A model generated the notes under the pieces. It had not been told where the DNA came from and searched no databases. It worked only from the letters and a program-made list of their open reading frames with translations. Shown here one piece after another: positions 24,651 through 49,893 of a stretch of 64,000 bases of DNA. The first letter of the stretch is position 1. The number at the start of each line of letters is the position of its first letter. The translations under genes and the position numbers were made by a program. Source of the stretch: Octopus vulgaris (Eukaryota). The stretch is taken from the NCBI GenBank assembly GCA_951406725.2, contig OX597815.1, positions 91,140,001 to 91,204,000 on the forward strand. The letters are read 5' to 3'.

Positions 24651-26257
24651 ATTTCTTTTATTTAGACACATGGCCTTTATAAAGAGGGGACACCACAAGG
24701 ACAGACAAAACAAGACACTGGGTACATATAAATATATATCGTATGAATTATAAATATGAGGAAAATGAGGATGAAATGGCTTACTTGCCCCCCCCCCCAC
24801 AGATTTACTTTACAGTCTCGCATTTTTTAACACAAAATTACGACAAATACTGTACTATATCGTCAAAAATTACAACAGGCGGCAGCTTGTATCTATACTG
24901 AAGCGGTGTTATTTCAACTCTTTATTTTTCTTTAAATAGTTCTACTAACCTCTCCCCTCTTTCTCTCTCCAACAGCACACTCTTCTTACCTTCATGGTTT
25001 GCCATTTTCACTCTGATAACATTTTTCATTTTAACAATTTCGACGCTTTTTTCATATACGATGAGGCTTCTTCAGTTTCTCTCTGTAGGTATCATTATGA
25101 TATCCTTCACCACTCTCTTCGTCCGTCATAAATACCTCTGTCTCTAATTCGCTATCTCTTTCGTTTCCTTCCTTCTTTCGTACTCTTTCTTCCTTGCTTG
25201 CTGAAGGCGACGGTTCGTGCGTTCGCACATCACTTGATTTTTCATTTGATTTTCCAATTTTTCTCTTTTCATTCTTGTTCTCCTCTTCGTTTGTCTTTCC
25301 TTTTTTTCTCCTTGGGGCTTTTTGGTGGTGATTCTAAGTTCTTTTTTCTTTTCACCACCGTAAATTGCTCCTCCATTTTCTCCTCCTCTACGACTGTACT
25401 CTCTTCTTCTTGAATTTCTTTTTCTGTTATTTCCTCTTCGTGTTTCTGAGGAGACTTGGCCTTCATGTGTCCCCTTACTCCACACAAAAAATATATTGGA
25501 AGTCTACCCTCCACAACAATCTTCAATTTAGTCTCATCCGGCAAAATCAGCTCTTCCACAATCTTATGGAGGTCTGGTAGGCTTATATGGACTGTTACCT
25601 GTAGCCCATATCCCCACCAGTTCACCTCCGTAGTTTTGGACATTTTCAAAATTTCTGCATCTTCCTCTGTATGGTAGAGGATGGCTGCCACCAGCCATGC
25701 CTCGTCAATTTCAGGAGTCACTCTACCTATCTTTACTCTGGCCGCACGTTTGCCACAGTAAGCAGATAGCAGAGCTCGCTCAGCCGATCTCAAGGCCACA
25801 GTGGAGCACTTCCCCGCCGCTTACAAAGCACACTCCCACCGTGCCGAACTTCCGTCCTCCGGTGTAGAACGTGGTAAAGTTCTTCACCTCTCTCAAACAC
25901 CCCGACCACCAGCACCGCTGCCACCTCCAACTTCCTCACTGCCATGTTCAACGCTGCGCAGATAATAGTTCCCCTCTCGGCACTTTCAATAACTTCTTCA
26001 ACAAGTCACTACACCTCTCGAAATTCCTGTCCCCAACTTCCACTTTACGAACCCGCAGTAGCTCCGCTGACAGGCCCACGCCCGTCACTGCAGCACAACT
26101 GCCCACCTGCACCGGTCCACCACTCACTATTTCACCCACAAATGGGGAAGACAAATAAAAATTCCAACAAATTCAACAACAATGCAACAATTCAGGAAAC
26201 AACAGGCCAACAACTACAGTGCTCACACTTCAACTCACTCAAATACAACGACGCGGA
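24651..26257 (-). mobile_element. ORF1-only retroelement, copy A (~1.6 kb, frameshifted)
   Basis: TSD TTTACACA(A/G)CTCT at 24638-24650 and 26258-26270; ORF pieces 25948-26154 and 25269-25799 with RVKIGRVTPEIDEAWL, VVEGRLPIYFLCGVRGHMKAKSP; AATAAA/A-rich 3' end; no APE or RT. Confidence 0.85.
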
Positions 26258-26270
26258 TTTACACAGCTCT

Positions 26271-27760
26271 CTTTCTTTATTATGGCCACAAGGGCTCAAA
26301 GTAGAGGGGGGTGACAAGAACAGACAGGACACCACAGAGGGGACAATACATAAAACGAATATGAATGAGATGATTATATAACAACGAGATTATGAATGGC
26401 TGCATGCGCTCCTCATCACATGCAGTACCATTAAGCTTGTTTACAGTCCATTATTATCGGGTATTTACATAACAACTAATTAACATGTAACATACCATTG
26501 CAAGTCGCCAATCTGTATATTCTCCAACGGTCCACATAGGATTCTTGATGCATTGTCTTTCCAATAAAAAGTCTTATTACTCGCTATCCATTGATTGAGG
26601 ACTATCTAAAAGACAGTCCTTTATTAACGGTATCACGTCATCCCAGTCAATTACTGGTTCCAACTTTTCAAACTCGACTTTAAACTGTACCTTTCCCAAA
26701 TCGCACCTTTTTTTTTAACTCCTCATAGCAATTCGGTTCTATTATTATTGCTTTAGTTCCATCGTTACCCTCACCCTTAGGTAATTTTACCCGTGTCACT
26801 GGCTTCATTTTCAGGAGCTCTGCTTCTATATGTATACTCCTTTGGTATTCTACATAATACCATCTCTTCTTCGTCTGGTTTTCACTCCCTCCTTCATTCC
26901 TTTTTCCTTCACCTCTCTTCAACTTCACTTTCAGAGGAGACACTTTCAAACTTTCCTCTTCTGTCTATCTTATCACCAATTTTTTCTCCATTACATCCCA
27001 TCGCCTCTTTTTTCTTTTTCAGCTTCTCCGATGGAGAACCCCTTCTACTTATTCTTTTCCGCGGTTTCACCTCCACGAATTTCTCCTTCTGTATCCACTG
27101 TTTCAGCTTCTTCTCCGTACTCTTCCACTGTTGCCTCTCTCTGTGTCGAACTCTCCTCCCTCTCTTTTTCCTTGCTTCGGGGGCAGTCCGCATTTTTGTG
27201 TCTTCTTTCGCTACACAAAAAACATTTCAAAGGCCTGCCCTCTACCACCACATTCAACTTGTTTCGTTCGGGCAATACTATTTCTTCAGTTATGGAATTC
27301 AGGTCTTCCAGGGTAGCTTGAATTTTCATTTCTAGCCCGTATTCCCAAAAGTTCACCTTTTGAGTTCTTGTTGCCTTAAATATTTTCGGATTCTGTTTTA
27401 TATGGAATAAGACTGCCGCCATAATCCACGTCTCGTCGTATTCGGGTGGGATTTTAACCACCCTTACTCTCACCATTCTTTTCCGCAGTACCTCAGTAGG
27501 AAAGCCCATTCGTCGTTCCTAATCACGTCTACTGCATGCTCTGCTGCTACTTCCTCAGATGCGAACCTGACTTCTACCACTCCGAATTTCTGACCTCTCG
27601 TTACAAACGTCGCCAGGTGTTTAATATTTTTTAGTATTTTTTCTATACTCTCAGTTGTCGCGGTTTCAATTTTTCCTGTGGATGATTTTAACGTTTTGTA
27701 CAGGACCGTCCTTTTTTGTAAACTTTCCGAAAATTCCTTTGGCGGTACCAGAGAGAATGC
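26271..27760 (-). mobile_element. ORF1-only retroelement, copy B (5' end lost, fused to Gypsy pol)
   Basis: ORFs 27470-27781, 27045-27509 (RVRVVKIPPEYDETWI, VVEGRPLKCFLCSERRHKNADCP), 26680-26949; 3' end GGCCATAATAAAGAAAG abuts the TSD of copy A. Confidence 0.85.
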
Positions 27761-29947
27761 TGTTCTTTTGTACAGTCCCATTTAGTGTATTTCTTTAACA
27801 AATTATTCAACAGAGCTCTTAGCTCATACATTTCAGGTATGTACAGCTGGTAATAACTTACCAGACCTAAAAATGCTTGTAATATTTTTGTTAGTGGGAG
27901 CAGACATATTTTTTATCACGTCAACCCTAGAAGGGTCCGTTTTCATCGATCATCTGTCCCAAATACTTCATTTTTGTTTTAAAAAATTCGCGTTTCTTTT
28001 CACTTAAATCCATAGTAGCTTATTCTTTTAAAAATATTTTTATAGGTTCAATATGCTGGTCCCTCGATTCACTTTTGATCAATATGTCATCCAAGTACGG
28101 GACTGCAAACTCACAGTCTGCTAACATAGTGTCCATCATTTGTTGAAATATTGTCGGTGCGACCTTAACTCCAAATGTCAGTTTTTTGAAACGGTAGAAA
28201 CCTTTATGGGTATTAATTGTTGATACCTTAACACATTCCTCATCTACCAGTAATTGGAGGTAGGCCTCTGACAAATCCAGCTTGGAAAAAGTTTTCCCAC
28301 CATTGCACTTAGCAAATATTTCTTCTGGCCTTGGAAGCGGATAGTTGTAATTTTTTAAACAATCATTTAGACCTCTCATTTTGTTGTTTTTCTTTTTTAT
28401 ATATGCAGTAGGAGCCACCCACTCTGAGTAGTCTACTTTTCCAATTACCCCCAGGTCTTCCAACCTTTTTAGTTCCTTCTCAACTTGATTTAACGCGCAT
28501 TCCTTTTCGATTTGAACACCGGCATCGCATTTTCTTTCAACTCAAACTTTACTTTGATTTTTTTTTTTACATGTTCCGAGCTCCTTCGGGAACACATCAG
28601 AGTACATCTTTAATTTTAATTTTTCCGACGCATTATCTGACACGAACTGTGACACATTCACCTTATTACATAATGTATTCAATGGTAGATCCCACAGGTT
28701 GAATTCTTTCATTAAATCTGTCCCGAACAGATTCATTGTATTTTTAGATACCATTATTTTACTTTTCCACGTCATTTCTTTAAGTTTTATTTCTGGCGAA
28801 ATTTCGCCCAAGAATTAAACCACTTCTTCCGGCACACCGTGATCTATCTTAGTAGTTTGTTTTTTGTTTTGTTTTGTATGCCGGTCTTCCTATCTTAATC
28901 CATGTTGCCGTATTAATTATCGATACATCTGAACCGGTATCTAATTGCATTTTCTTCTGCAAACCATTTATTTTTACCGACACAAATTTTCGGTTTTCTA
29001 TGGTATAATTTATTTTTGTTAAGTTGACTTTCTTCGGTTTCTCATTTTTTACATCTTTCTTCAACAAGCGCCCAGTTTTACCGCACTTAAAACATTTTTG
29101 ATCTTTAAAGGGGCAATCTTTCTTAAAAAGCATGTCTCCGCAACCATAGCACGTTTTGGATTTATCTGTCTTTTTTTCTTTCGATACTTTCTTTACACGT
29201 TTGTACGCTATTATTATTATTATCATCTTCTATTTTTCTTGCATCTTCTTGAATATTTATTATCTCTTGGCATTCCTCAGCCACTTTCTGCAAAGTTAGT
29301 TCAACATCTTGCTTCAACTTTGATAATGTTCATTTTCTAATTTTCGCGTCTTCTGTTGCCACAAGCCCTTTAACGAATATTGGGCACTTGAACAGATCTG
29401 GCGTTAATTCTCCAAGCTTTATTAACAATACTGGCATATGTTACAAAGTCGTCTGACTCATCTTTAAATTTAAACATTCCCAATGGATGTTAAATAGCGA
29501 ACGTTTTTCGCTAAAAATATTAGTCAGAATATTTATCGTTTCATCAAAATACAATTCCGCGGGCTCTCTCGGCAAAATAAAGTTACAAAAACTTTTGTGT
29601 TCCGGAGGAGTAAGTTTTCGAAAAAGGAACCTTACTTCCTTTCACTAGACCATCCTTTGCATTCCTCTCTGAATATGTTTCCGTATCGTCTGTAATACGC
29701 GGTAAAGGTAGTTCCTTCATCCGGTTTGTACTGAAATTCTTCGATGGAGTTTGCAACACCGTCTGCTGAAAATAATTCTATCGTATTTCTCGACTGCAGT
29801 AACAACTCTGTTAACTTCTGTAGTTGCTGCTGCTGCTCTTGTTGTTTTACGACTGCTTTCAGTAACTCTTCCATTTTGGTACTATTTTCAGTTTCAATAT
29901 TGTTCGAAACCTCGATGCCACTGTTGTATCAATGGCAATACTGTCCG
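27761..29947 (-). pseudogene. Ty3/Gypsy (Mag-like) gag-protease-RT, decayed; RNase H and integrase missing
   Basis: gag FQYKPDEGTTFTAYYRRY (29632-29874), two Cys knuckles CYGCG..DCPF/CFKCGKTG, protease LDTGSDVSII, RT SEWVAP, FSKLDLSEAYLQ, YLDDILI, then LQAFLGLVSYY...LLKKYTKWDCTKE. Confidence 0.93.
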
Positions 29948-29961
29948 AATCCTCGTCGCCA
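29948..29961 (-). other. Primer-binding site of the Gypsy element
   Basis: Minus strand TGGCGACGAGGATT directly after the 5' LTR and before gag. Confidence 0.8.
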
Positions 29962-29962
29962 C

Positions 29963-30102
29963 TATTGTATTGCACATTCGATGTACAATATAATGGGATA
30001 ATAAATAGCATCCTCGCAAATCGTTCAAATCAAGATACACAATACTTGTAATTACACTCGTCAATACGCAACCCTCGGCCTTACACAGCTCACCAACTCT
30101 CT
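29963..30102 (-). mobile_element. Gypsy 5' LTR, PBS-proximal part (remainder probably 31780-~31850)
   Basis: Homologous to 24523-24650; interrupted by copy C; resumes as (CT)n then ...GTGGCACA. Confidence 0.85.
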
Positions 30103-31779
30103 TTTTCATTTTATTGGCCACTGTGGGTCCAACACAGAGGGGACGAACAAAGACAAATGACACAAAGTGGGGTCAGAAAACATAAACGAATGAATGAAAT
30201 GAATTTATATAATGAATGAGGGTGTAATGGTTACTTGAGCCCCACTCTCGAGTAGTACCATTTAACTATTTTTTACACTAATGTTTATCAAACTATAATT
30301 ACCGTATTAGATCATATACTGTCTCAAATGTTCAGATTCCACCGCGGGAGGTAATCATATCTCACCTCCCGTCCTGGTGGGTCTAAGTCATTGCCAAAAA
30401 TTCCTTTTAATTTATTATGATTGTTCATGTCTATTAATATGCATTTCATGCCCGGTACGCACCATTCTTCAGGCAGTTCAACTCTTATTATCGATTTGAT
30501 TTTTGCAATTTTTTTCATTGGCTATGTCCGTCATATAGTTCGTCAGATGTGCCCTACTTCTATGACTGGCCTGTGATGTTTGTGTGCCTGCTTGTGTGTC
30601 TATATGTGCTTCTACTAGTGTATGCTTATCTGGACATTCTGGGATGTCTGTGGTTTTCTTGGGTGTTTGCGGTGGTATGGTAGACTGTGTGGGTGCTTGT
30701 ATGCTACTTCTTTCTTTTTCTTTTTGTTCGGATTCTTCGGCGGGGGGAGGGTTTTTTAGGTCCTTCCTCTTTCTATTTTGTATCTCCTGGAATCCCTTGT
30801 CTCTGCTTTCTACATTTGATTCTTCCATAGTTTCCTGTATCTTCTCTGTTGTTGTTCTCTTCTTGCTTTTCCTCCGCTGGTATCTGGTTGTTAAAAAGGG
30901 GCAGCTCGCCTTTATGTGCCCCCCTCTTTCTGCAGTGGAAACAGCTTCACTTCTGGTAGCTCTATTTCTTCTACAATTTCTTGTAAGTCCAGTGAGGCGG
31001 CCTGGATTATAACTTCCATGTCATATCCAACCAGTTCATTTGCTTTGTCCGACTTACCTGCAGCACTCCTGGATCCTCTTTTGTCCCTGTTAAGGTTGCT
31101 GCAAGTAGCCACATCTCGGCAATCTCGGGGGTGCACCCTGTCAATCCTCACTCTTGCCATTCGTTTACCGAGATAGGTTGGAAGAAGTAAGTGCCCATTC
31201 TTTCGTTCTCGATGCTGTAGGGGAGTGTTTTACTGCCTCCTCTATGGTAAGAAAGTGCACCTCCACTGTGCCGAATTTTCTCCCTCAGCAGAAAAATTTA
31301 ATGTCGCTCTTTATTTCTTCCAAGCACTCTTCTATTGCTTCCTCACTAGCTATCTCTATTTTCTTGCTTGTACGTGACATGGGTTATATACATCATTATC
31401 TTTTTATTTTTCTTTCTTGTTACATTTTCCGGGGTGGTCAATTTTAGTCTTGACCTCTCTCTTTGAATTAATTCCTTGCTGCTTTTTAATATTTCTAAAT
31501 CCACAGGTACTTCCTTCACTTCCAGCTGGTTAACAGCTAAATCCTCACAACCTGCTACTGAAGCGTAGCTCCCAACACATGTTTGCAACACTTCCATAGC
31601 TTACTGCTATTTTCGCCCCCACTGGGGGAGAAATTAATAGCAAAAGCAAGGAATACAACAATCAATCAACAATGGTTTAACAGTTCTGACAATAGGTAAC
31701 CCCACTAGAGAGGACCTTCAACAAAGGATAACCTATCCGCAACAATAACTGATTCAACACTGAACAACACAGTTCAAGG
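30103..31779 (-). mobile_element. ORF1-only retroelement, copy C (~1.7 kb, frameshifted)
   Basis: TSD TCACCAACTCTCT (30090-30102) / TCGCCGACTCTCT (31780-31792), both mismatches CpG-type; GSYASVAG start region, RVRIDRVHP, knuckle CFHCRKRGHIKASCP across a G-run frameshift; GGCCAATAAAA 3' end; no ORF2. Confidence 0.85.
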
Positions 31780-31785
31780 TCGCCG

Positions 31786-31816
<31 letters not shown>

Positions 31817-33329
31817 TTCTGCGCATGTCCATTTATATTGTGGCACAGTACATTAGGAGCCAACCAAATTGGGGTGTTCTACTTTCACACAACAAATAGC
31901 AAGGCCCAAAACTTTAGTGTTCACACCATGGACTAACTCTTACCAACACAGTTCATCAATTTCCTCAAATTCCTGATTTTACCATACTTGCACATGACAT
32001 GTGCCTTAAGCCAATAGCAGTCATAAGAAGACTAATACAGCTCATATTATAAATCAAAACGGTTGTATTTAACACATTTCCCTTGTATAAATCCAATATA
32101 AACATACACAGTGGAAGTTTCAAAACAGATTCAGTCAAAAGGATACAACATTACCCAGGGGATTAGTTTTTGTAGTTTATCTAATGAAAATCAATAGCTC
32201 CTATTATTTTCCAAACTATATTCAAGGAAGGATTTAAACAGCAAAACAAACCATTTGTCAATTATAAAGTAAACCATATTTTTATGGTGAGTCGCATGAT
32301 AAATCTGATACATATTCACAACTAAGGAGATGAATACAGCATGAGTCATATCTCATGTTTAGTGTGGGCCCATAAATCCATTAATTCAGCTAGCTGCAAT
32401 TCTGACTGCAATGCTGTATTAATACTAACATTCTGAATACTAATATAGGTATGTGTATTAAAATTCTGGTTTTTCTTTAGAGTCTGTACTATTCTTTCTT
32501 TTTCATTTCAAGATTTTAAAATGTTTATTCAAATTTTATTGACTAAAAGTTGAATTTTTTTTACCAATCCTAGATTCTTGAAAATACAAAATAACTGTTT
32601 TTTTCTTATTAATTACTACAATATCTTCACAAAATATATGAGAAGAATTAATTATTTTATGGCGATAACCATAATTGACAGAGAAAAATATTTAAAAATC
32701 CTATAATGAACTTTTAAAACTTTTAATGATTTTAATTAAGCTCTATCTAATATTGTTTCTTTTTACAGATACGATAATTTTTGTTATAGAGTTGAGTCTA
32801 GAAAGTTACAGGTGCTAGTATTGATAGTAATTATTTTATTAATCACCAAATAAATTAAAATTTTTAAAAATAACACTAGTGCTACAAAACTATTATTAGT
32901 AGACTCTATCTACCAACTTGTCACCAAAATTAAGATCTGATATAGAGTTATTTTAATTAAACATAATTCCAATTGTGTGGAGTAAAAGACTAAAATATAA
33001 CTTATTTTTCTCAAACCAGTATGTCAAATCAGCACCTCACTTTTCAAATGTATAAGGAAGATATGCACACACAAACACACATACAAACTCTCTTTTATAT
33101 ATATGGAAAACGAGGGGCTATTTATCTATGGAAGAAAAGGAAAGACGTTATATGTAGTGTATTGTTTGAGTACGTTGGTAAATTTTAGTAAATCTTAATC
33201 ATAAAATCTTAAACAAGTATAAAATCACTTTACCTTTCACTTGTTTAACATCTGTTGCTGGACATATTGTAAAAGTATTGACTGAGTATATGACAGTTAA
33301 TTCACTGAAGTGTATGCATTAAGTGATAG

Positions 33330-33683
33330 GAAGAAATGAAAGAACAAAGTATTAAAATTCTGTCTCTCTCACTCTCTCCCTGTCTGTCATTCTCTCTATC
33401 TGTCTATCTCTTCCTGTCTCTTCCCCTCCCTGATGTCAGGCACCCTCATTATGCCACATTTCCCTAAACCTAACACTATTGCACCCCACTCATTTTATCA
33501 TGTATTAGCCCAACCCCTGTAGTTGATCCATTATCGATTTTTTTTTAAATCCAATTAACCTGTAATTGAACAGGATGTTAGTTCAACATTTACACAAAGT
33601 TTGTTGAAGATTGGTTTGCTGGTTTGGGCATCGAGATGGTAACAGACAAACGGACAGACAGACATTGCCATTTATAATAAAGA
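33330..33683 (-). mobile_element. Possible non-autonomous Helitron-type element, 5' end (left boundary uncertain)
   Basis: Minus strand begins A|TCTTTATTATAAATGGCAATGTCTGTCTGTCCGTTTGTCTG, i.e. TC terminus followed by (GTCT)n; no clear CTRR end found. Confidence 0.4.
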
Positions 33684-35261
33684 TTACTGCAAAACCAATG
33701 GTCACTCTATGATAGCCATTAGCCATAACATTTAACTTCTTTAAAAATATATTACTGCTCTAATGCTTCTTTTTTTTTCTTTTTTTCTTTTTTGGATATA
33801 TGAAATACTGACAATATATATATATATAACTAGTGCCTATTTTATTGATCATTTAACAATTGCAAACCAAAATCATTTCTGTGTAAATTCAACTCAGAAC
33901 TAAGATGGCTGAAAATACATTGAGCCTTGAACTATACTGTCTCTGCATTGTCTGCTGGTCTATGTAAATGAGGGAGTTTCTATTTAATCACTCAATATAA
34001 CAGCCAAATTCCCCTTGTAAATTTTGTCTCTGAAGTAAGGTACACATGTTTTAAGACTTATATATTTGAACAGCATATTCCAAAGGAAAGATTGGATGTC
34101 CACAGCTAGAAACTGATTAGAAGTTTTGTTTGACCAGTTATTGCTTCCTTATAAGCTTGTTTGCTCATGTGGAAATGACAGGAAATACTTAATACTTGAA
34201 ATAAGCTATAGTTAATTCATTAGACAGTTTCTAATTTAAATGTTTGAGATATACATGGAAACTACATTATGAATTGAAACACTCACCAATTTTTAATCAG
34301 GCTTTCCACGAATACCAAGATGAATAAGAAAAAGTTATAAAATTTTGTGGCTTGTGGAGTTGGATAATAAGTTGCAAATATGTCCAGGGCTCTTGAGAGT
34401 GGGATTCAGCCAGTACATTGATCTAGGGTTCAGAGAGACAAGGAAGGTCTTGTGTCTATCTACCGGGCCCCCACACAAAAAAAAAAGAATAAGAATAATA
34501 CATAACCTCATGGCCTCCTTAAATTTTAAGAAGCCTACATATCCTGGAGCCTGAAAACAGTTTGGCTCCACCTTGCTGAATTTCTCTTGGACACCCTGGT
34601 TGAAGAGGTATCACCATGCTGTAAGAGTCTTTTTCATTGTTGATTTCTACATATTTCTTTCTGAGATATTCTTTGTGTTATTACATACTCATTTTTACTG
34701 TATGGTTATCCTGTTTCCCAATAACATATCATGCTGCTGTAGTTGAGAAATACATGCAGCAGAAATATGTTGCATCTAAACTGTCTTTCATCCTCATCGC
34801 ATAATAAATCATCACTAGATCATCACTAACTTTCTTATAGAACTGGTTCATTTCACAAGTCCACTGGAAATTCTCTCAATCGTCCCAAAATCATTTTTAT
34901 GTATGTATGCACATATCAATGTATGTATGTATGCATGTATGCATGTATGTATGTATGTATGTGTTTTTGTGTATATACGTTTGTATTAAGAGTATAATTT
35001 GACACGCTGGGTTGGGGCTTTATAGAAGTGCATTTTCTAACATCTTCAAGTAGCTCTAAAGTATTAACTGTGTGTCCTATCATTCATCACTTACTTTTGA
35101 TCTTGATGTGTTATTATATAAGCTTAGGTAAACTAGAGGAAACTGTATTATAACTTTGAAAGCAACTATTCACCTATGAAGCTCTCGTAAATAAAATATT
35201 TTCATTGCAGCAAGGATAGTGCTATGAATTTTCCATCAACACAATTTCATTTCACCATACA

Positions 35262-35459
35262 GGTATACACATACACACATATCCATGCATACATACATAC
35301 ATAAATATAATATACATAAATATAATACATACATACATATATATATGTGTGTGAGTGTGTGTGTGTATATATATATAAAGATATATATATATATACATAT
35401 ATATTTATACACATATATATATACACACACACATATACATATATATATATGTATGTATG

Positions 35460-35491
<32 letters not shown>

Positions 35492-35662: not shown

Positions 35663-35693
<31 letters not shown>

Positions 35694-37258: not shown

Positions 37259-39964
37259 GAAACAACAAACAAGGTGAGGACACCTATCCGTCCATTGTAA
37301 ATAATGTACATAATTCCTCATCTCAAAAATATAGAATAGTATCTGTCTCTTTGCATTCTGAATTCTAAGATGGTAGACTAATCCATCAATCCACCAAGTC
37401 AGTTGGTGCCTTTAGTAGAATTCACTCTGTTGCAAGCATTGAAGACAAGTCTCCAGTTTGAGGATTACTTCAATCTTTTGTTCTAACCAGTCTCAAAGGC
37501 CTTGTAAAATGAAGGCTTATAGATGCTGCCATTTCCTCCTTAACAACTTTCTAAAATATTCCCCTTGCTGACATGCCAAATACTCTGCATTTCTTTCTTA
37601 TCTTCAAACTTTGTCTTTACTAAACAATCTTGAACCTATTGAAGCATTCAACCAATCTTTAATCTAGGCTATGCAAGACACATAATAACACTGAACAATA
37701 GCACTTTTTGAAACATGCAAATGAAGGCCATCTGACTGTTTAGCAATTAAGAGCAGTAGACAAATGAAAAGTTGAGTAAATTCATGCCCGTTGTATTTCC
37801 AAAGGTTCTAGAAGTTTTGTTCAAGGTTATAAAAAACTGGAATATTGCAATCTCAAATACAGCCACCATAGACACTACACAGAATTCTGTTGTTTAATTC
37901 TAAGAAATGTGTTCACACTTACTTCTTGTTTTTGTGTAACTTTGTATACCATGTTTGGCAAAGAGTGATGAACTTTGTTCTGTAATGTCAAAATGCATGC
38001 ATATCTATACACATGTGAACATCTTTTTATATAATTACCACCTTATTCCATTTTGTAATAACTATTTACATATATCATGTAACAGTGTTAACTGGAACAT
38101 TATAAAGCTTTAAATGCCACATACAAGCCAGCAAATAAGCTTCCTGATATAATTCACTTGTACACTTTGGTCATTCATGTAAAGAACACAGTCACTTTCC
38201 TTCAACCTAGTTACCCTGAACAACCCAACAATAACATCTAATAAGGAAATATGAATTTTTTATATAAAAATAAACTAAAATTTAGGCACAAACAGTATTT
38301 TAATAATACACACTTGGAAAAAATTTGCGATGTTTGGTTAAATGCCCAAACATTTTGGGTTCCTATCCTGCCAAGGCCAACTTTATTTGTAATCCTTCTG
38401 GATGTTGGTAACCCTAAGTACCAGTGAAGAGCTAGAGTCAATGTAATAGATAATAATCTTATGTGGTCTTGTATTGGTATGAAATCTTTATTTTTATCAC
38501 TACATGTTTAAAAGGAAAGCTTTTTCCATGCACACACATATGCACTTACTTGCAGATACATTTATAAAAGTGTATCTAATCTCGAAGAAATACTCTCAGA
38601 GATGTAATTGGTAACTCAATCATTCAGGAATTCGTTGATGTAACTCAGATCATGTTTCTCACTTTGTTTTCTTTTGCAATCTCCTGTTTGTATTTATAAA
38701 GATATAGTGTTTTACTATTCATTATATTCACATGTTAACTGTTTATGCTAATGTGTATGTCTATGTGTGGATCATCGTGTATAACTACATAATTTCGTTT
38801 TATTAGTCATCCATCATCTAAAACCTTAGAAATGAAAGATATTATAAATATTCTTGCAATTATTGCCCTGCAAGTGATATTCTTTTTATCATATATAATT
38901 TGACAGCTTGCTATATAATTCAATATATTTCCTTTGTTCTTACACAATTTTATCACTAACATGCATTCATATATTCATCAATTTTAGTGACTTGTTCCAT
39001 TCCCATAGTTGGTTCAGGCACTCACTTAAATACCTTTGTAGTATTATATAAATGTTACTAGTTTTATTCACACTCATATGCTAATGGAGACTACAGTTTC
39101 TGCCAGTTGCAGATTGAGGTTGTTTTATATCATTGTGAGAGAAATTATTAATCATCACAAATAGAAGAAAGAATTCCTTCTGTTTCCCAACTGATAATTC
39201 CATCATAGCAGCTTCCTAAATGATAGAATGTCAATCAGTAGTGTTTTATGACATCTCTGCTAATCTCTGTCATCAACAGAAGTAACTCGATTTGATGTAA
39301 GTGCCATAATACAACGTGAATAATACAATATTTGTTTACTTTATTACATCTTATGACACTGAGTAAAAAGAATTAGCTTCTGGAAGACAAAATATGTTTA
39401 TCTTTATGTCATCTGTCTTCTATTCCATGATTCCATCTATCTGTTATTACTGTTCCAATACTGCAGCAGCATATTTGTATACATGCTTATTTTTGTTAGT
39501 TTATCTTTTTCTTTTTTTTTCCATGGGAGTTATTGTTTTGAAAAGGGAGCTAGCTCGATTGATTTTAGTTTTATGATTTGATTTTGATAAAAATGACAAG
39601 ATTAATTTTATTTCAAATAAAATTAAGCATGTTTTTGCTGTTGACTAAAAGTTAATCTGCTACTACACCAAATCTGTAATAAAATTTTGGATTCCCAATT
39701 TAGAAATATTTCATTTTACTGCCTATGCTGTTGGCACAGTATAGCCAAATGGTACAATCTTGGCCCATACCTTGTTACATACTGTATCATGCTGCTGATT
39801 CTGTCTGAGAATTGCATTAAGGGTATCTGTGTCCATGGAATACTTAGCCACTTACAGTTTAACTCAGGATCAGGTAATTCTGTTGATTAAACAACTAATT
39901 CCTCATCATCAAATGACAAAGGGCCAACCTTACTGTTTTTTTATTTTTTATTTAAAATGACTGT

Positions 39965-40272
39965 GGAGGCACATGGCCTAGTGGTTAGAGCAGTGGACTC
40001 GCTGTCAAGGGATCATGGGTTCAAATCTCAGACCGGGAGATGTGTGTGTTTATGAGCGAAACACCTAAGCTCCACGCAGCTCTGGCAGAAGGTAATGGTG
40101 AACTTCTGTTGACTCTTTCACCACAGCTTTCTCTCACTCTTTCCTCCTACATCTAGCAGCTCACCTGAAACGGACCAGCATCTTGTCCAGGTGGGGAACT
40201 TATATGCCACTGAAACCAAGAAACCGGCCCTTATGAGCCAGGCATGGTTCGAGAAGGAACAAACAACAACAA
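39965..40272 (+). mobile_element. SINE-C: tRNA-derived SINE with V-like central segment and (AAC)n tail
   Basis: A box TGGCCTAGTGG, B box GGTTCAAATCT, tRNA-like head; CACCTGAAACGGACCAGCATCTTGTCCAGG centre; AACAAACAACAAC tail. Confidence 0.8.
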
Positions 40273-40619
40273 AAATGTAAAGTGATTAAATTGACCCTCA
40301 TCATCATCATCATCATCTTTATCATCATTCAACTACAGCTAAGGAAAGCCACATTTTTCCTCCACCCTTGTAACTTTCATAAACCTGACCTTCAGAGGGG
40401 AATTTCTAGGTGGATATCTTCTCCAATGTTCTAACTATATGGATCCATGTTAGTGATAAAATTGTGTCAGAACAAAGGAAATATATTGAATTATATAACA
40501 AGCTGTCAAATTATACACAATAAAAAGAATATCACTTGCAAGAATATTTATATCATTCATTTCTAAGGTTTTAGATGATGGATGACTGATGAAACAAAAT
40601 TATGTAGTTATACATGATG

Positions 40620-40880
40620 ATCCAGGCACACATTTTCATGGGTTTGAACTGGTGTTTTAATGAGCTCAAAAGAATGAACAGCAAGGCTGACCTCAGATTA
40701 CAGAGGGCCAGAACAAATACCACAAAATATTCTAATCGATTCTCTAACAACTCTGCCAATCTGCTACCTTGACTAGAAATAGACACTCCAAAGACAAACA
40801 GCGAAATCAAACCTGACAAGGTTTGAACTCAGAATTTACAGAGATAAAAACTAAGCTTTTTCTTCATTGCTCCACCACTC
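40620..40880 (-). mobile_element. SINE-B fragments
   Basis: GAATGAACAGCAAGGCTGACCTC, TCTAACAACTCTGCCAATCTGCTACCTT, TTTGAACTCAGAA. Confidence 0.55.
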
Positions 40881-41169
40881 CTGCTAAATGCACTAGATAA
40901 CAAGCTATGGTACTCTTTCAAAGAATATTTTTTCTTTCTGTTGATTTCTTTAGGTTAAATTCAAAGCTATTACTTTGTAGACAAATTTATACTGTCAGAT
41001 GAATAAACCTGCATACTACTGGCATTTATTCTCAAAACACTGAAATATATGGAGGAGATGACAGAGGACTGAGATATGTGACACATTGTTGTAGTTGAGA
41101 AGACCTACCCACCACAACAGAATTGAGATCCTAAAACCAAAGTGCCATATAGTGTGAGTGCTGATACCA

Positions 41170-41380
41170 CATAATAAGCACTGGTGATGGTACCACATAA
41201 ATAGCATCTAGTACACCCTGTAAAATAGTTGGTGTTAGGAAGGGTACCCAGCTGAAGAAAGCAAGCCAAAACAGACTATGGAACCCGGTGCGGCCCCTGG
41301 CTTTGCCAGCTTCTGTCAAGCCATCCAACCCATGCCAGCATGGGAAACAGGCATATGTTGAAGATAATGATGATGATGAT
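41170..41380 (+). mobile_element. RTE LINE 3' tail fragment
   Basis: TTGGTGTTAGGAAGGG...CCATCCAACCCATGCCAGCATGG...(GAT)n. Confidence 0.8.
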
Positions 41381-42129
41381 TTTACTGAGTCTGCACAAAG
41401 GAAAGTGACAGTTAACCCTGACAGGATTTTTAATCTGCTTCCACTCCTTCCATACCTAACTCCTACCTTTTATCTATCTGGTGATCACCTTCCCTCTTTC
41501 ACTCATACCCCATTCACTTCAATCATCTCATCCTCGTATCAATCATTTCTCTCTACCTCTCGTCTCCCAACCATCTATGAAGCTCACAAACTATGAATGT
41601 TTGCCCTACATACTGACCCACCACTCTATCTCACCGACCCTTCATTACACCCATGTATAAATGTATAAGAGACTGCACTTCTCTATCCTCATCAACTCGC
41701 TTTCAATGATTTTCTCTAGACACTTGCAATCCTCTTCTATTTTCTCTCTTTCATTTTGTCATTCCTCCACACCTTCCACTCATACTCACCTTTATAAAGT
41801 GAGATAACCCTGAAGTTTCTGTTCATACCCCACCTCATCACAAGTTACAACCTTGTTCCTCCCTTTCTCACTAACCACTGACACTAATCCCTTCCTTTCC
41901 CCTGTCCCTCTAGCACACTCTTCCCTGATAGTGATTGCTCTTTTACACTATCCACTATCACCTTCCTACAACTATAAATTTGTTCCTTTCATCATATTTC
42001 ACTCTCTCATCATCTTGCCTAAATTCTGCCCCCTTTTCTCCCCTCCCCTTCTCTCTCTCTCTCTCCTATACTACTTCTCTTACAATGGCCACTTTGGGTT
42101 CTTTAGTTTTGCAAGTTTCAAAATGACCT

Positions 42130-42312
42130 AACTAGTGCTGGTGCAAAGGAAAAAGTGCCCAGTACACTCTGTAAAAGGATTAACATTAGGAAAGGCATCC
42201 ACCCATAAAAACCGTGCTAAAACACATTGGAGCAAGATACAATTCTCCAACTTGTCAGATCATGTTGAACAATACAACCTAAGTCAGCATGGGAAGCAGA
42301 CATTAAACAGCA
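42130..42312 (+). mobile_element. RTE-type 3' tail, diverged, preceded by a pyrimidine-rich tract
   Basis: CCCAGTACACTCTGTAAA...TTAGGAAAGGCATCCA...CAGCATGGGAAGCAGACATTAAAC. Confidence 0.65.
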
Positions 42313-44273
42313 ACAGCAGAGGAGGAGGAGGATGGTTAATGAAGAAACAAGACTAAACATTGTTAGAGAAACTTTATACTGTTTCAGAATTGAGTACAAA
42401 ACCAAAAATTTGAAGCAGAGAGGTGTAATTCATTGAACAGACCCACATTCAAGCAAATTCTACTCAATTGTTTTGCTGATGCAGATTACAACTAATTTTC
42501 ACAGACTTTAATTTTTATTTGTGTATGTGGGCAAAGAATAGAAGTTTAAAAAGTGAGATACATATGGGCCAAGTGATACTTACTGTTGTTTATATTTTAA
42601 TATATGTAAATATGTTAGAAGTGATATATCTAAAGAGATAAGAAATTAAATTGACTGTTCCTGTATCAAGAATTTAAATTCATTGCAACATTTCCTCAAT
42701 CCACCTGAGTATCAAGAATAATTACCAGATTTACCTGAGAAGTTTGTGATCAAATCTTACTTGAATCCTACCCAACCCCCTTAAAAATGGAAGGTTAATT
42801 TTGTTTGGGATATAGAAAGGAACTAGACATATATATCTGGGATATAGATGGTGATATAGATGGTGAAGTCTGCTCAAACTTAACTAAAAGACCTTGGTGT
42901 TAAATAACAACAGCAACAACCAACTTTGATGGCCGTCAAAGATAAGCAGGTATTGTATGACAAAGGAAAGAGTATAATTATTCTATTTAAAAAATGGATA
43001 CTACATTTAGCATTTATCAGCAGAATTATGTCTTGGTCAGAGGAATAATGTCAGGGCTATTGGAGGATATGAACTCAAGAGTTCAAGTTCTACTACAACC
43101 ATTGTGGTGTGTCATTAAACAAAGCAAGTGACTCTACTTACTCCAGTCTATCTGATTGGTGAGGACAAAACACCCAATTCATTCTTTATGGTTGAGTGGT
43201 TATTTGCAAGAAGGGCTAATATTTGCTTCAATATAAAACTATCCCACCAATACAAGTAAAGAAAAATTATTGTAAAACAGCAATAAGTATTGCAATCTTT
43301 TTATATCACTTATGTTCCTGTTTTTGATTTGAAAATGATAAGGTGGTTAAATTTAATTTCTTAATAGTCTAGGATTATTCAAAGAATATATTTGAATCTA
43401 TTAGATATAAACATTGCGATAAACATTTTATCTTTATCTGAATTTCCTGTTTATCCAGCTCAATATTTACATTCAGTTCACATAAATATATAGTCAGAAA
43501 TCATAAAGTGCAATCTATAATTTATGGAAGGGAATTTTAGATCTCAGGTGTGTGAGCAGAATAGTATAGTATTTCTAGAAGGGACAGCAACTGTTCATGC
43601 CTAAAATGTTTTCAGGTCATGAAAAGGAATTTTGGTCTGCCATTGAATTTGATGTTGTGCACCATTACATTGTCCTACTATAATCCAGTATGGTTACCAG
43701 AAATCCAGGAAGAATTTTGTTTCTAGTCTATTTTACAAAAATCCTTGCATTAACACTTTCACTTTATGTGTTTTAAATCAAAGATAGTCAATTTAATAGC
43801 ATGCCTGATAACTCAGCTAAGATGATCAGTTCGATAGCAAGTCTGGTAACTCAGCGTAGCAGTCCATGATGCATATCTTATCACCAGTTCCACTATGTAC
43901 CTAGAAAACTTGGTTCTCAACTGTTCAGTCTACTTAGCTGCAGGTAGCTACTTCTTCATGGTGGTATATAATTCATCACTGTAAGACAGTGACAACACTC
44001 TGAAACTATCAACTATTTTATTGACTTACAATGCTGAGTTCAGTTCACTTAGTAAATAAAGCCAGAAGTGTTGTTGACTACCACTGGTCTCATTAACACA
44101 TTGGTGGTGTTGATAGTAGAGAAGGTTACCAACAAAGTAAACATTGTATCTAATTGGCCATCTCACCTGTATTCAGAATATACTAATATATGAAGAATTT
44201 CTGTTATATATTTTCTCGAAAAAAGAAACTTAGGAAAACATTTTTAAAAGAAAGATCAAGAAGTCAAGTTGAT

Positions 44274-44510
44274 GAAAATATTCAAGGAGTGGAATATTTT
44301 TGGTCAGAGAAACAAGGTGGTGTAGCATCAGATGAATTGAAGCTAGTTCCATTTATATAACAAATTAATAAAGCAACAACAATAAATAGCATCTCGTTAG
44401 AGAGATAACAGTTGAAACAGCAAGGCTTGTAATGACACCCAAGAATTTATGACATTTCAAAGAAAACTAATACAGATGAGACAATAAGAACGTATTGTTC
44501 CAGAACTGAA
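44274..44510 (+). pseudogene. Possible Penelope-like RT N-terminal fossil
   Basis: One frame with stops: SEKQGGVASDE (cf. ADKGGxVVxD) and PRIYDISKKTNTDETIRTYCS (cf. PRIYGLPKIHKxDxPLRPIVS). Confidence 0.4.
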
Positions 44511-45409
44511 ATAAAATGAAATAAAATACAATATAAAATTGTCTGGTGAATGTGTTAATTTTTGTTCATAAAATAACAAAGGAGAGGGTAAAAGAAAACT
44601 GCTCTGGTTGTTGGTCTACAAATTCACTCAATCAACATTTGAATAGAGGTAAAAAAAGAATGGAAAAATATTGAATATCAAGCAATTTCCCTTTATTTAT
44701 TTCATAATTCTGTCGTTCGTTCTTTCTTTCTTTTCCATATTATTCTTTCAAAAATTCTTTGACAGTAAACACATATTTAATGCTCCAATTTTATTTTTAT
44801 CACACAAATTTAAGTCTTCTTTACAGGTTGGAAAAATGTGATACATATTGATTGGCATAGTAAATTGAATCTTTCTGAAAAGTGCAGTATGACAGAAAGA
44901 AAACAAAATAATGACTTAATAGAAGAAATACATGGTTCTTTTCAGACAGAATAAAGGCAAATAATAAACCATTTAAAATCATCCTTCGTTGAAAGCTCTC
45001 TAATAAGTTGACTAATTTCATTGTGTTAGAAAATATAACAAATGCTTTGATTAGCTGAGCTCTATGTGGTGAATATTTGGTGCTGCTTCTTTCATGAGAT
45101 CTCTCGTTGAGAGCAATAATAACACAACACATATGAAAGAGATGCAAGGAGTGGAAAATAAACACATTTCACCATTTTGCTGTAAGAATATTTTCAATAA
45201 CAACTTGGAATCAATAACTAAGGAGGTTGCTCACCAAGCCAAACCAGTATAAAAAAAATAATAAAATGACCATTATGAAAGAACTACCATAAACTAATGT
45301 CTTTGTATCTGTGCGTAGATGTCAGTGTGTGTTTCATGTTACTCTGAAATATGACAAATTCAAGAATGTCGTCATCATCATCATCATCATCATTGTTGTT
45401 GTTGTTGCT

Positions 45410-45600
45410 GTCAGTTCCATGTCAGCCCTGGTCAAGGAAACCTATAATAAAAAGTATTCAAGCCAAGACCATTTTTTAAAATATATCAGATTCAAATTAT
45501 ATGCCACTGTCTTATACAATAAACTCTACTCTTTTTTAACATGACAGGGTGTCATTTTGAGCGGAATTTAGCTACTATTTCTAGCAAGTCAATCCACACA
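45410..45600 (+). repeat. Old dispersed repeat copy
   Basis: GTCAGCCCTGGTCAAGGAAACCTAT...GGAATTTAGCTACTATTTCTAGCAAGTC; same family as 12478-12720. Confidence 0.7.
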
Positions 45601-46071
45601 AGAGTGTGGGTCTATATAGTGATTCAGAGTAGTTCAACAGCAACAATCCAACAATCTTACAACTTACTTTGAACAATTAAAAGAATAAAGGACATTTTAT
45701 CATCATCCTCCTCATCATCATCAGCAGCAGCAGCCTACCTTTCCCACTCCTCTTAATATCGGAGTGACCTGAAATTTTTAAAGTTTCACTTAGGTAGCTA
45801 CTTCTACTCTATCTCCTACAATCATCATCATCATTTAATGTCTGCTTTCCATGCTGGCATAGGTTGCACAGTTTGACAGAAGCTGGCCAGGTAGGAGCCT
45901 GCACAAGACTTCTGAGTCTGTTTTTCATTATTTTGCGGGAAAAATATTTTCAGTAAACAACTTGAAACAACAACAAAGATATATCTGTACAGACATGCCA
46001 GCACATGCACATGCACACACATATACATACACAGAGGGACACACATGCATTAATAAATAGCAAATAGAAAT

Positions 46072-46406
46072 AGTGGTTGTGATACCTATGCCGGTGGCAC
46101 ATAAAAAGCACCATCCAAACGTGACTGATGCCAGCACTGCCTTGACTGGCTTCTGTGCTGGTGGCACATAAAAAGCACAAACCGATCATGGCCGCTTCCA
46201 GCCTCCCCTGGCACCGGTGCTGGTGGCACGTAAAAAGCACCCACTACACTCACGGAGTGGTTGGCGTTAGGAAGGGCATCCAGCTGTAGAAACACTGCCA
46301 GATCAGACTGGAGCCTGGAGCAGCCTCCTGGCTTCCCAGACCCCAGTTGAACCATCCAACCCGTGCTAGCACAGAAAATGGACATTAAACAATGATGATG
46401 ATGATG

Positions 46407-46408
<2 letters not shown>
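46072..46408 (+). mobile_element. RTE LINE 3' UTR fragment with three GTGGCAC(A/G)TAAAAAGCAC units
   Basis: Colinear with 52100-52352 and 62040-62335; (GAT)n tail. An oppositely oriented short tail lies at ~45823-45920. Confidence 0.9.
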
Positions 46409-46438
<30 letters not shown>

Positions 46439-46706
46439 GTGTGTGTGTATATATAAACATATATATTCAAAATGTGACCGCGTGTGTACCATTGGCGATT
46501 TTTTTTTCTTCCGTCTTCCCTTCCTTGGATCTTTCCTTTTCCTATGTCTCTGAGTGTCCAATAGCACTATACTTGTTCCACATCCCCGCGTTGTTGTGTT
46601 TTCTCTTTTTGCTTTCATGTTTGGATTAACTATATATATATATATATATATATATAAATATACATATACACACACACAAGAATACATATGTATACACGCA
46701 TGCATG

Positions 46707-46747
<41 letters not shown>

Positions 46748-47039
46748 CATAATACTATTATGTATTTAAATATTAAACCACAATAAATTAAAATATTTAA
46801 TCTGCATGATAAATATGAAGCAGAAAATCAGGCAACTCAGAATAATCACATAAAAATACACATGTGAAAATACCAATTTAGTGCCGGGAGAGGTCCTGTC
46901 TTTGTTAAGCAAATTCATGACTTGCTTCGTCAGTGAGCTTTAACAAACAAGAAGACAGGTAATTGTGCCATCATCAACGTATCCAGCACCAACTCAATTG
47001 TTGAGATTTTTATGTGTGTATTTTATTGCTTGGTCTTTG

Positions 47040-47725
47040 GTACAAACACCAGCATCACCAACATCTACCAATTCAACCCTTCTTCAATTTCTCCTCTGTC
47101 AGCTAATACCATCATCAGTTCCATAGCCATTTTCTTCATCATGATTACTATCAACATCACCAATATCAACATCTCTACATGCTGATCTTTTCTTTCATTA
47201 GTCCATCCTCACCCCCTGCTAACTACATTACCATCATTACCACAACCACCACCATCTACTTCATCATCATCATCATCACCGTTATCATTATCATCATCGT
47301 TGTTATCATCGTCATCATCATCATCATTATCATCTTCATCATTCAGCCACTGCTACCTCCATCATCACCACAACTTCATCTTAAAACAACATTACCACCA
47401 CACACTTCAACCATACAGCACCAACACTACCAAACTGTCACAATCATTTTTCCACCATTTCTTCCTCCCCTGCCATACCATCTCCAATGGTTCTATCACC
47501 ATCATCATATATATCACCATTGTCTACCACCACCACCACCCACCCCTATCACCAAAACTAATACCAGCACTCTCACATCTAATTTCACCCTTGTCACAGT
47601 TACTATCTCCATTACCACAACCACCACCAACATTATCATCAACATCTAATCATCTAATCATCAACACCACCACCATTATCATCTTCAACATCATTTATGC
47701 CATCATCATCACCTTCATTAATTCT
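47040..47725. repeat. (CAT)/(CAC)-rich low-complexity tract
   Basis: Direct reading. Confidence 0.9.
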
Positions 47726-48363
47726 TTTGGGTGCACCACTACAAACATATCTGGCATTAATTTAACCCCATTACCAACATTGACCTTGGCCCCTACCCAC
47801 CACTTTGCATTGCATCTACCGTTATGGCTATCTTCTGTCATTTTGACTTCAACATAGATTTTGTATAGAAGGTGTACTAATTATCCTAGATAAGTTAGCT
47901 TCTGGTGTGCTTTTGTATGAAACAAAATGCATTCTGTCAAGCTCACTGTAATAAAAGCTTCATCAGGATTTGTAAATGTAGCCAGCTGTATGCTTTATTT
48001 AAACTATTACATGATACATTGCTGAAATCAGTAGTTAGAACTGAGAACCTCCAAAGGGAACATCTAAGTTGTTGATGTGTAATTTATTTCCTTTGTTTAT
48101 ACATAGGAGCAGTTAAAAATGACTGTTCAAAATACATTGGTGTTTACAAAGACTAAGCTCTGACAAGTACTTACCAGAAAAAGGTTAACAGAATGGATTT
48201 TAAAACCACCACATACAGGAAAATATCAAATATTCATCACAAATTACCTCATGTCAAATCTAGATATTCTGCTCACTCACTCACTTTCAAACTAAAGTCA
48301 GTTACTCACTTAGGCATTCAGTATAAAGCATTGGTTGATATCATGTGTTGATGATATATATAT

Positions 48364-48424
48364 AGGCACAGGGGTGGCTGTGATAGGCACAGGAGTGGCT
48401 GTGTGGTAAGTAGCTTGCTAACCA
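48364..48424 (+). mobile_element. SINE-A head (21-nt head duplication), interrupted by copy D
   Basis: TAGGCACAGG(G/A)GTGGCTGTG occurs twice, then GGTAAGTAGCTTGCT. Confidence 0.85.
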
Positions 48425-49893
48425 GCTTGCTTCCGGTTACCCATACTGCATTTGGTTTGTCGATTGTGTACGAGTCGGAGGTCGATTGTGTGCGAGTCGG
48501 AGGTCGGTTTTGTTGCTGCGGTGAGACAATGTACTCGGACCTTACCGGGTCTGAGTTGTTTTCAGAGGAGGAGCTCATGAGGTCGGTCATAGCAATGGAC
48601 AGTGTACTGAAAAAGACCAGAAGTTTTGCAGAGGTCACGGGGAAGAGACGAAAGGAGCTGGACTTGGCTGGTCTGAAAAACCATGGCAAGATGCTACAGA
48701 AGGTGGGAGGGGACGTAACACTGTCGCCCCTCCAAAGGAATTATGGAGAAGATGGAAAGGAAGACTATCACCTATAAGGTGTTCTCTTTAAAAGGAAGAA
48801 GGGCTGAACAGGTGGAAGCGGATACAGAAAGAGCGCTAAGTAAGAGGTCAAAAGAAATCACATACATCACAAAAGGAAAAAGATACGGAACAATGGTCGT
48901 CCAATTTAGGACAGCTGAAGAGGCAATGAGGCTGGCAAGTGTGGTGGTGAAAACGGAGGAGGTAGTGCTCCTGCCCAAATACCTGGGAAGAAAAACTTCT
49001 AAAGTGAGGGTAGAAGCAATTCCGCCGGATATAGAAGGGGCTTGGGTAGCGGCAGCTGTCCTTGTTGAAAGCGAGGAGAAGGTGGCTGTCCTCCAAGCCA
49101 CAGAAACAGAAGAAGAAGGGTGCAAAGGAAGGACGCTCGAATTAATCATTTAGACGGAGGAGGAACAACTTGAGAACTTGGCAGAGACTGTGACACTGGG
49201 GAAAATCGTGCTGAGGGTGTGGGTAGAGGGCAGAGTACCTCGTTGTTTTAAACGTGGCCAAAAGGGCCACATTAGAGCATACTGCCCTCTACAAAAGACT
49301 ACGGTCGAGGGTGTGGTTGCAGAGACAGAAGAGAAAAGAGAGGAAGAAGAAAAAATAGACGAAGGAAGCGATGAAAAGGAGGAATGGAAAGTTGCAGAGC
49401 GCACAAGAAGAAAGAGAAAAAAAAGAAAAGACACTGAGTATGATGTGGCACCCAGTCCAACCCCATCCTACCCAAAACCACTCAGACCCACCCTCCCCAC
49501 ACAGACACCAAACCCACCCACCCCATTTCCCCTCAAGAAAAAAAAAAAAAAAGAACAGACACCACAAAATTTAGAAGACCCCCCTCCCGGCAAAAAAGGT
49601 TATGAATGCATGACAGAGAGAAGGTTACCATCAAGTGACAGGACTGAACGAAAAGAGAAAAAGGACTCAGGTCCCAGAGACAGCGAGTTGTGTTACTCAG
49701 TGTGGGGTGAGTAGCACACTCTTCATAATATCATTTTCAGATATCATTCATATTATCATATTTTAATTTGTTCTTCATGTGCATTTTCATGTTCATTCAT
49801 TATATCATATTTTATTTTTTAATTGTTATATGTCCCCACATGTGTTGTAGTGTCCCATCTGTGTACTGCCTTTATGGCAAATTTGATAAAATA
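48425..49893 (+). mobile_element. ORF1-only retroelement, copy D (~1.47 kb)
   Basis: TSD AAGTAGCTTGCT(A/T)ACCA at 48408-48424 and 49894-49910; ORF pieces RSFAEVTG, KVRVEAIPPDIEGAWV, WVEGRVPRCFKRGQKGHIRAYCP; GATAAAATAAA end; no ORF2. Confidence 0.9.

Follow-up and report, generated by a model that had tools for sequence, protein, structure and literature searches.

A putative long-lived family of ORF1-only, LINE-like elements in Octopus vulgaris

Results

Four related copies without ORF2

Here we describe a family of retroposons found in a stretch of 64,000 nucleotides (nt) of the Octopus vulgaris genome (assembly GCA_951406725.2, contig OX597815.1, positions 91,140,001 to 91,204,000), which we call the window and from whose first letter all positions below are counted. 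Each copy encodes the remains of a protein like that of the first open reading frame (ORF1) of a long interspersed nuclear element (LINE) and ends in a short 3' untranslated region (UTR), with no second open reading frame (ORF2) between the two. An initial annotation, made from the letters alone, had placed four such copies here, and all four are borne out by tblastx and a family profile: A (24651-26257), B (26271-27760) and C (30103-31779) on the minus strand, and D (48425-49893) on the plus strand. The units measure 1.5-1.7 kb and are mutually homologous by tblastx (A-B, 40% over 127 amino acids, E 1.8e-34; A-D, E 5e-17), while blastn returns no match among them. Their divergence is high (25-46% amino acid identity in unbroken pieces), and within the window these four loci are the only ones matched, whether by a profile built from 90 family proteins or by tblastn queries from the family.

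Copy A, delimited by tblastx, the family hidden Markov model (HMM) and its target site duplications (TSDs), is a full-length element with frameshifts and stops. Its unbroken frame (25272-25820, minus strand; P0001), identified with the family HMM, covers a second RRM domain, the CCHC region and the start of a charged linker, and is followed by a C-terminal domain with one internal stop and the terminal TAA (24838-25062) and by a 3' UTR of 187 nt (24651-24837) whose AATAAA adjoins the end. Copy B is 5'-deleted and fused to the pol region of a gypsy element: it starts at a junction near 27760, where the gypsy reverse transcriptase (RT) frame stops, and has neither a 5' UTR nor the N-terminal motif nor a 5' TSD. 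On the minus strand it retains the first RRM (27473-27760; P0004), the second RRM and CCHC knuckle in another, unbroken frame (27048-27518; P0002), a frameshifted C-terminal domain with the terminal TAA (26577-26862) and a 3' UTR of 306 nt (26271-26576), the last ~200 nt of which are homologous to A and C. Copy C is full-length with several frameshifts and lies within a 5' long terminal repeat (LTR)-like segment of the same gypsy element; its C-terminal domain (30518-30313), stop (30307-30309) and 3' UTR (30103-30306) are likewise on the minus strand. Copy D is full-length, has a 3' UTR of 179 nt and no C-terminal domain; its coding part starts with an ATG at 48529, shifts frame near 48720-48745 and continues in a long frame (48743-49714) with an internal stop at 49151-49153. 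As annotated, all four copies are broken, D being the least damaged (an early frameshift, a single internal stop and one knuckle cysteine replaced). The N-terminus of D resembles, by inspection, that of the homolog P0008, and its 5' UTR contains 2.5 copies of a 22-nt tandem repeat (48459-48513). As for the 5' ends in general, those of A and C are weakly similar (z 3.7), and those of A and D, and of C and D, are dissimilar.

The motifs by which the family was recognized are distributed less evenly than had been claimed. Namely, S(Y/F/C)AxV, reported for all four copies, occurs in A, C and D and not in B, whose 5' part is missing; RV.V..(I/V)P.....W, VEGR and the knuckle occur in A, B and D, while in C the RV..P..W motif is found in frameshifted pieces and the VEGR-knuckle stretch is degraded and unreadable as such. 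Similarly, the linker was said to lead straight into the 3' UTR, which is true of D; in A, B and C a C-terminal domain of about 85 amino acids stands between them, which the initial annotation overlooked. Finally, the terminal stop and the 3' end are 187 nt apart in A, 306 in B, 204 in C and 179 in D, and the longest stop-free stretches after that stop are 53, 56, 39 and 55 codons, respectively, so that there is no ORF2 in any of the four.

Boundaries and tails of the transposed unit

The TSDs of 13-17 base pairs (bp) proposed for A, C and D stand up well, both in trials with random pairs of ends and, for D, in comparison with empty sites. The TSD of A (13 bp, one mismatch; minus strand) has its 5' copy at 26258-26270, between the 3' end of B and the 5' end of A, and its 3' copy at 24638-24650, which is also the start of the right-hand LTR-like segment; random end pairs equal it in 1 of 3000 trials. 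That of C (13 bp, two mismatches; minus strand, 5' copy 31780-31792 at the edge of a (GA)n tract at 31787-31820, 3' copy 30090-30102) is the weakest, being partly GA repeat and equalled in 40 of 3000 trials. That of D (17 bp, one mismatch, equalled in 2 of 3000 trials; plus strand) lies within a repeat resembling a short interspersed nuclear element (SINE), with the 5' copy at 48408-48424 and the 3' copy at 49894-49910, after which the repeat resumes to about 50050. Eight paralogs of this SINE-like repeat, 83-93% identical, are found at 10563-10747, 14198-14382, 15379-15529, 15730-15907, 16627-16810, 18454-18639, 19245-19412 and 21812-21988, and the 17-mer is single in all six empty paralogs that were aligned, which proves the TSD of D. 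B has no TSD, its end match being no better than chance (34% of random trials). Because A, C and D are bounded by TSDs, with 179-204 nt after the stop, the ORF2-less unit itself is what transposed in these three cases, just as had been proposed. The junction at which A and B flank one TSD is crossed by one contig of a DNA-type sequencing run, with 17 differences over a length of 605 nt.

All four 3' ends have an AATAAA no more than a few bases away, and no long poly(A) is present. The strict form of the tail motif first proposed, TGTCCC..CT..GG(C)..ATAAA, matches A and D, as well as an unrelated site at 42156, and misses B and C; the similarity of the tails is of another, longer kind. In particular, ~180 nt of the 3' UTR are homologous between A, B and C (leave-one-out nhmmer E 4e-14, 5e-15 and 2e-14), and pairs of these three UTRs score z 10.1-13.4 above shuffles. 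In A and C the terminal stop and the start of the homologous UTR are a few tens of bases apart at most. A profile of the tail has no match below E 0.07 in the window beyond A-D, and no separate copy bearing either a tail or an ORF2 was found there beside them.

Encoded protein and its relatives

The AlphaFold2 model of the homolog P0046, built on an alignment of 90 sequences, has a mean predicted local distance difference test score (pLDDT) of 75.7, mostly above 90 in the core. Its best Foldseek matches are tandem RRMs (IMP3 RRM12, E 3.2e-4), its second domain is aligned by VIA to ferredoxin-like folds (Z up to 8.1, root-mean-square deviation (r.m.s.d.) 2.5, 79 aligned), and zf-CCHC is present in 28 of the 90 aligned family members. 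The predicted layout is thus two RRM-type domains, a CCHC knuckle and a long charged linker, with a small beta/alpha C-terminal domain in most subfamilies. A combination of RRM and CCHC defines type I ORF1 and is consistent with Tx1 (PMC5203782). The model and the domain matches therefore support the assignment, made initially, of a type I, L1/Tx1-like ORF1, a type that Tx1 shares with other elements. Pfam gives no significant family for the window pieces P0001-P0004, and Transposase_22 is absent from these pieces and from 46 scanned homologs.

The C-terminal domain, which follows the charged linker, is matched by its profile in A (25062-24844, E 1.5e-8), B (26862-26619, E 1.8e-9) and C (30518-30313, E 3.4e-15), and in 12 of the 150 protein clusters listed. 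It is modelled as a small beta/alpha domain whose best VIA alignments, to ferredoxin-like folds, are middling (Z 5.9, r.m.s.d. 3.7, 68 aligned); Foldseek gives no match at E 0.001 and the ESM Atlas no usable one, from which neither a family name nor a new fold follows.

A phmmer search with the O. bimaculoides homolog P0007 finds 258 clusters at E 0.001. Of these, 150 are listed, and 132 of the 150 show similarity to the second RRM or to the C-terminal domain and not to the knuckle alone, a count inflated by fragments and obtained with a membership profile that drew on many of the same matches. Taxon names were obtained for 17 of 30 homologs looked up, and all 17 are octopods (16 Octopus, from three species, and one Argonauta). 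The lineage was originally called an old, diversified cephalopod one; it is large and diversified, and the taxon for which it is documented is narrower. Twenty further homolog records lie on contigs of 1131-2722 nt, which fits a short unit; we do not count them, such contigs being short anyway. In a quick tree, from which C was left out, D is placed apart from A and B, in another clade (Shimodaira-Hasegawa-like approximate likelihood-ratio support 98 and 95). No endonuclease (EEP) or RT domain is present in any of 46 scanned among the 150 listed matches, which is weak evidence given that ORF2 is normally a separate protein; weak, too, is the lack of long ORF1-ORF2 fusions in insensitive word-index searches for homologs (3, 2 and 1 matches), where the one longer match is a helitron chimera. 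Scans of JGI metagenomes gave no matches.

Several gene models deserve separate mention. P0008, P0061, P0074 and P0101 fuse a family open reading frame to C2H2 zinc-finger arrays, a helitron helicase, an RGS domain and a GRF/SNF2 protein; these are probably annotation chimeras, and exaptation may be the alternative. P0028 (O. sinensis), P0088 (a 2209-nt ENA contig) and P0064 (Argonauta) are long and apparently unbroken (527-623 amino acids), and are candidates for intact masters or for the ORF1s of autonomous relatives.

Outside the window, contig depth in three DNA-type sequencing runs, summed over A, B and C, exceeds that of the flank bin by a factor of about 4-100, which indicates many related copies and gives no copy number. 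Among the 32 contigs listed of about 118,000, two, each about 13% divergent, cross the stop of B and run colinearly into the UTR for 124 and 69 nt.

Selection, insertion sites and age

Between unbroken pieces of the copies, the ratio of nonsynonymous to synonymous substitution rates (dN/dS) is 0.18-0.73 in 7 of 11 pairs (A-B, 0.26 over 102 codons), with dS saturated in the remaining four. A comparison of this kind had been suggested as a check on neutrality, and its outcome is non-neutral: it supports divergence of the protein under purifying selection between subfamilies. The UTR, too, is kept among A, B and C, although synonymous sites are near saturation. As A and C have a common stop-to-UTR junction with no remnant of ORF2, it is likely that ORF2 was already missing before A, B and C separated, in which case selection on ORF1 would have acted in ORF2-less masters.

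Three of the four copies sit in one host element, a circumstance that the initial annotation also overlooked. On the minus strand, the decayed interior of a gypsy-type LTR retrotransposon (27761-29950; DUF7083, aspartyl protease and RVT_1 by Pfam, the last with E 3.5e-17) ends after the RT, where B begins. A 5' LTR-like segment (29961-30102, minus strand), downstream of C, is 84% identical over 127 nt to 24525-24649, part of the 3' LTR-like segment downstream of A (24525-24650, minus strand). The part of the gypsy element beyond the RT and the upstream portion of its 3' LTR are gone, along with the 5' end of B. C lies at the (GA)n edge in the 5' LTR, and B, then A, lie 11 nt further along in the homologous sequence of the 3' LTR, as a tandem pair with one TSD between them. 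The rough, post-hoc chance of any single such pair is 0.004, for four copies only, of which D is in a SINE. Alternatively, A may have used the A-rich tail of B as its target, its end match being as long as 21 nt. Among Tx1 families there are some with a preference for LTR retrotransposons or for (TC)n, and tandem insertions with a TSD between them are on record as well (PMC4494074); the placement of A, B and C may be Tx1-like in this sense.

At a rate of 0.0036 per million years (My; PMC13282606), the divergence of its LTRs dates the arrival of the gypsy element very roughly to 25 My ago. All three subfamilies, 31-43% identical in aligned pieces, would therefore have been mobile afterwards, and we infer that several deeply diverged subfamilies were mobile in one period following that arrival.

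Other features of the window

Left of the 3' LTR segment, 24281-24490 holds a second short repeat that is extremely abundant, with a summed depth of more than 1 million in two runs. A fragment of a mariner-type transposase lies at 57285-57557 (Pfam Transposase_1, E 1.4e-10), and open frames resembling the end of a LINE ORF2, which we take to be RTE-like, lie at 60640-61370, with no Pfam match for 60978-61367. An Rfam scan of 24400-50300 and ARAGORN on the window returned no matches. In one run of 17.6 Mb of contigs, guessed to be RNA (X4), identical contigs cover A, B and the gypsy interior (24742-29907), and neither the greater part of C nor the flank at 32059-32300 is covered. If this run is RNA, then 24742-29907 is transcribed; we do not use it as evidence of expression.

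Discussion

Taken together, these results make it fairly probable, in our judgment, that A-D belong to a long-lived lineage of non-autonomous LINEs that encode only ORF1 and are moved in trans by L1/Tx1 elements. Their movement could be pictured as follows. A master copy would be transcribed from its 5' end, and its own ORF1 protein would coat and chaperone the RNA in cis; such packaging is, we propose, the reason why ORF1 has been kept. The ORF2 protein of a helper L1/Tx1 element would then bind the conserved 3' tail, nick the target and prime reverse transcription, creating a TSD. The helper endonuclease would likely favour certain repeats, which could explain why three insertions lie near the (GA)n edge of the LTRs of one gypsy element. 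Candidate helpers do exist: 80 L1-Tx1 families, amounting to 56.3 Mb, are given for O. vulgaris, 13 of them recently active, and to these belong 421 near-full-length insertions with a mean length of 5.4 kb (PMC13282606). We are more doubtful about a bolder version, according to which there is one ORF1-only lineage, older than the split between Argonauta and Octopus and without an RT of its own, with dozens of co-active subfamilies and a family-specific C-terminal domain that recruits the helper Tx1 ORF2 or steers insertion into repeats; this is possible, but rather unlikely as a whole.

That said, a number of observations weigh against a single, long-lived ORF1-only lineage. The tail of D is only weakly similar to the other three (leave-one-out E 0.09, z 3.0-6.8), and D lacks the C-terminal domain, belongs to another clade and lies in another target; D may thus be of separate origin. 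B carries about 100 extra nt of UTR and is without its 5' end. A conserved RNA structure of the UTR is unsupported (z +0.86, +0.52, -0.86 and -1.00; 2 of 15 consensus pairs changed on both sides), and scans of the window and of JGI metagenomes found no helper with the same 3' tail. The dN/dS values come from protein-guided alignments of short pieces near saturation, and one pair stands at 0.73. As for the protein, PF23057 and PF23058 are absent among the 25 listed of 72 Pfam families matched, type I ORF1 is known outside L1/Tx1 as well (PMC5203782), and some of the 132 clusters may represent the ORF1s of autonomous elements, or else fragments left by decay. Finally, genomic context is seen for four copies only.

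Could the copies have arisen without such a lineage? They might be retrocopies of a short ORF1 transcript, made by autonomous two-ORF Tx1/L1 masters and ending at a polyadenylation signal in a conserved spacer between the two frames, with selection on both ORF1 and the apparent UTR acting in those masters. The common stop-to-UTR junction and the purifying selection would then need no independent lineage, and the autonomous families just cited are plentiful in O. vulgaris (PMC13282606). We nevertheless regard this as improbable, for the AATAAA lies a few bases from the TSD and no long poly(A) is seen, which fits the 3' end proper of a LINE better. Cleavage normally takes place 10-30 nt downstream of a polyadenylation signal. 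Moreover, all four window copies are ORF2-less and are accompanied there by no separate tail- or ORF2-bearing copy.

It is also conceivable that every subfamily is an internal deletion of its own, from a different autonomous parent, and that A-D are short-lived passengers rather than members of one old lineage. Half-L1 (HAL1) elements arose independently several times in just this manner (PMC5753468), D is set apart by its tail, its clade and the lack of a C-terminal domain, and B has additional UTR sequence. Separate deletions would not, on the other hand, be expected to leave A and C with one junction free of any remnant of ORF2, nor is homology of the A, B and C tails over ~180 nt what they would predict, and we hold this explanation to be quite improbable. 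Very improbable, in our view, is a domesticated host gene family, similar to ZCCHC3 or L1TD1, with the copies as its processed pseudogenes. A ZCCHC3 RBD cluster of the ESM Atlas (0.90, 168 shared features) is a lead in this direction and only that, and several homologs are annotated as RefSeq genes; yet there are more than 100 divergent clusters, many of them fragmentary, each subfamily has multi-copy depth, and the insertions are nested in other repeats and have LINE-type ends. A domesticated gene should be intact, low-copy and syntenic, while all four copies are broken and multi-copy, with A, C and D bounded by TSDs; a domesticated member may exist elsewhere.

If the ORF1-only lineage is real, it offers a natural test of why a non-autonomous element should keep ORF1 at all, as a selected protein without an RT points to a benefit, in cis, of packaging one's own RNA. 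Its conserved 3' tail provides a handle for finding the helper, and with it for testing stringent tail recognition and targeting of the Tx1 type. There are practical consequences as well: RT-based surveys of LINEs in molluscs miss ORF1-only elements by design, and open reading frames of the family have entered octopus gene sets, some under the label of uncharacterized CCHC proteins and others as parts of what are probably chimeric models (C2H2 zinc finger, RGS, SNF2), so that annotation is affected. Were the lineage in fact single and older than the Argonauta/Octopus split, it would be a protein-coding LINE parasite that surpasses the known HAL1s by far in age and diversity.

Gag- or ORF1-only non-LTR elements are not new to invertebrates, HeT-A of Drosophila and Ag-Sponge of Anopheles being examples; these originated in the Jockey and CR1 groups, and HeT-A is specific to telomeres. 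As far as the available portions of the literature go (including PMC8967140, PMC9115989, PMC10294476 and PMC11203168), no cephalopod is described as having ORF1-only LINEs; this search did not extend to subscription journals, nor to Repbase, Dfam and the Zenodo library of PMC13282606, and any of the last three may already list the family under an L1-Tx1 or unknown label. The L1-Tx1 families of O. vulgaris itself come from the same host group and are the likely helpers, and some of the 80 could include ORF1-only elements, but the recently active ones average 5.4 kb, and ORF1-only families are undescribed in the available parts of the text and supplement (PMC13282606).

Among better-known systems, the Tx1 clade (Tx1-8_Crp and Tx1-4_AMi on LTR retrotransposons, Kibi on (TC)n, SINEU-3; PMC4494074) resembles the octopus copies in its type I-like ORF1, TSDs of 13-17 bp, insertion into repeats and TSD-sandwiching tandems. 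The octopus copies differ in having no ORF2, and so carry no RT by which to place them in a tree; SINEU-3, for its part, encodes no protein (PMC4494074). TRE5-A.2 of Dictyostelium is a further parallel, as it is without ORF2, is moved in trans by an autonomous relative's ORF2 protein and needs a 3' module, but it is a direct deletion derivative of one known parent, its ORF1 has no sequence homology to other ORF1s, and its targets are tRNA genes (PMC5633606). Similar in its way of life is mammalian HAL1, a non-autonomous LINE derivative encoding only an ORF1 protein (PMC5753468), exactly as the octopus copies do. However, mammalian L1 ORF1 is of type II, with the coiled coil, RRM and CTD of Transposase_22 (PMC5203782), whereas the octopus ORF1 is of type I (RRM-RRM-CCHC) and has a charged linker and an extra C-terminal domain; furthermore, HAL1s arose several times, while A, B and C appear to be of single origin. 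In other words, the octopus family works like HAL1 but, its ORF1 being of a different type, is not HAL1 in the strict sense, and it is a real, probably undescribed form of an already known, ORF1-only kind of non-LTR element.

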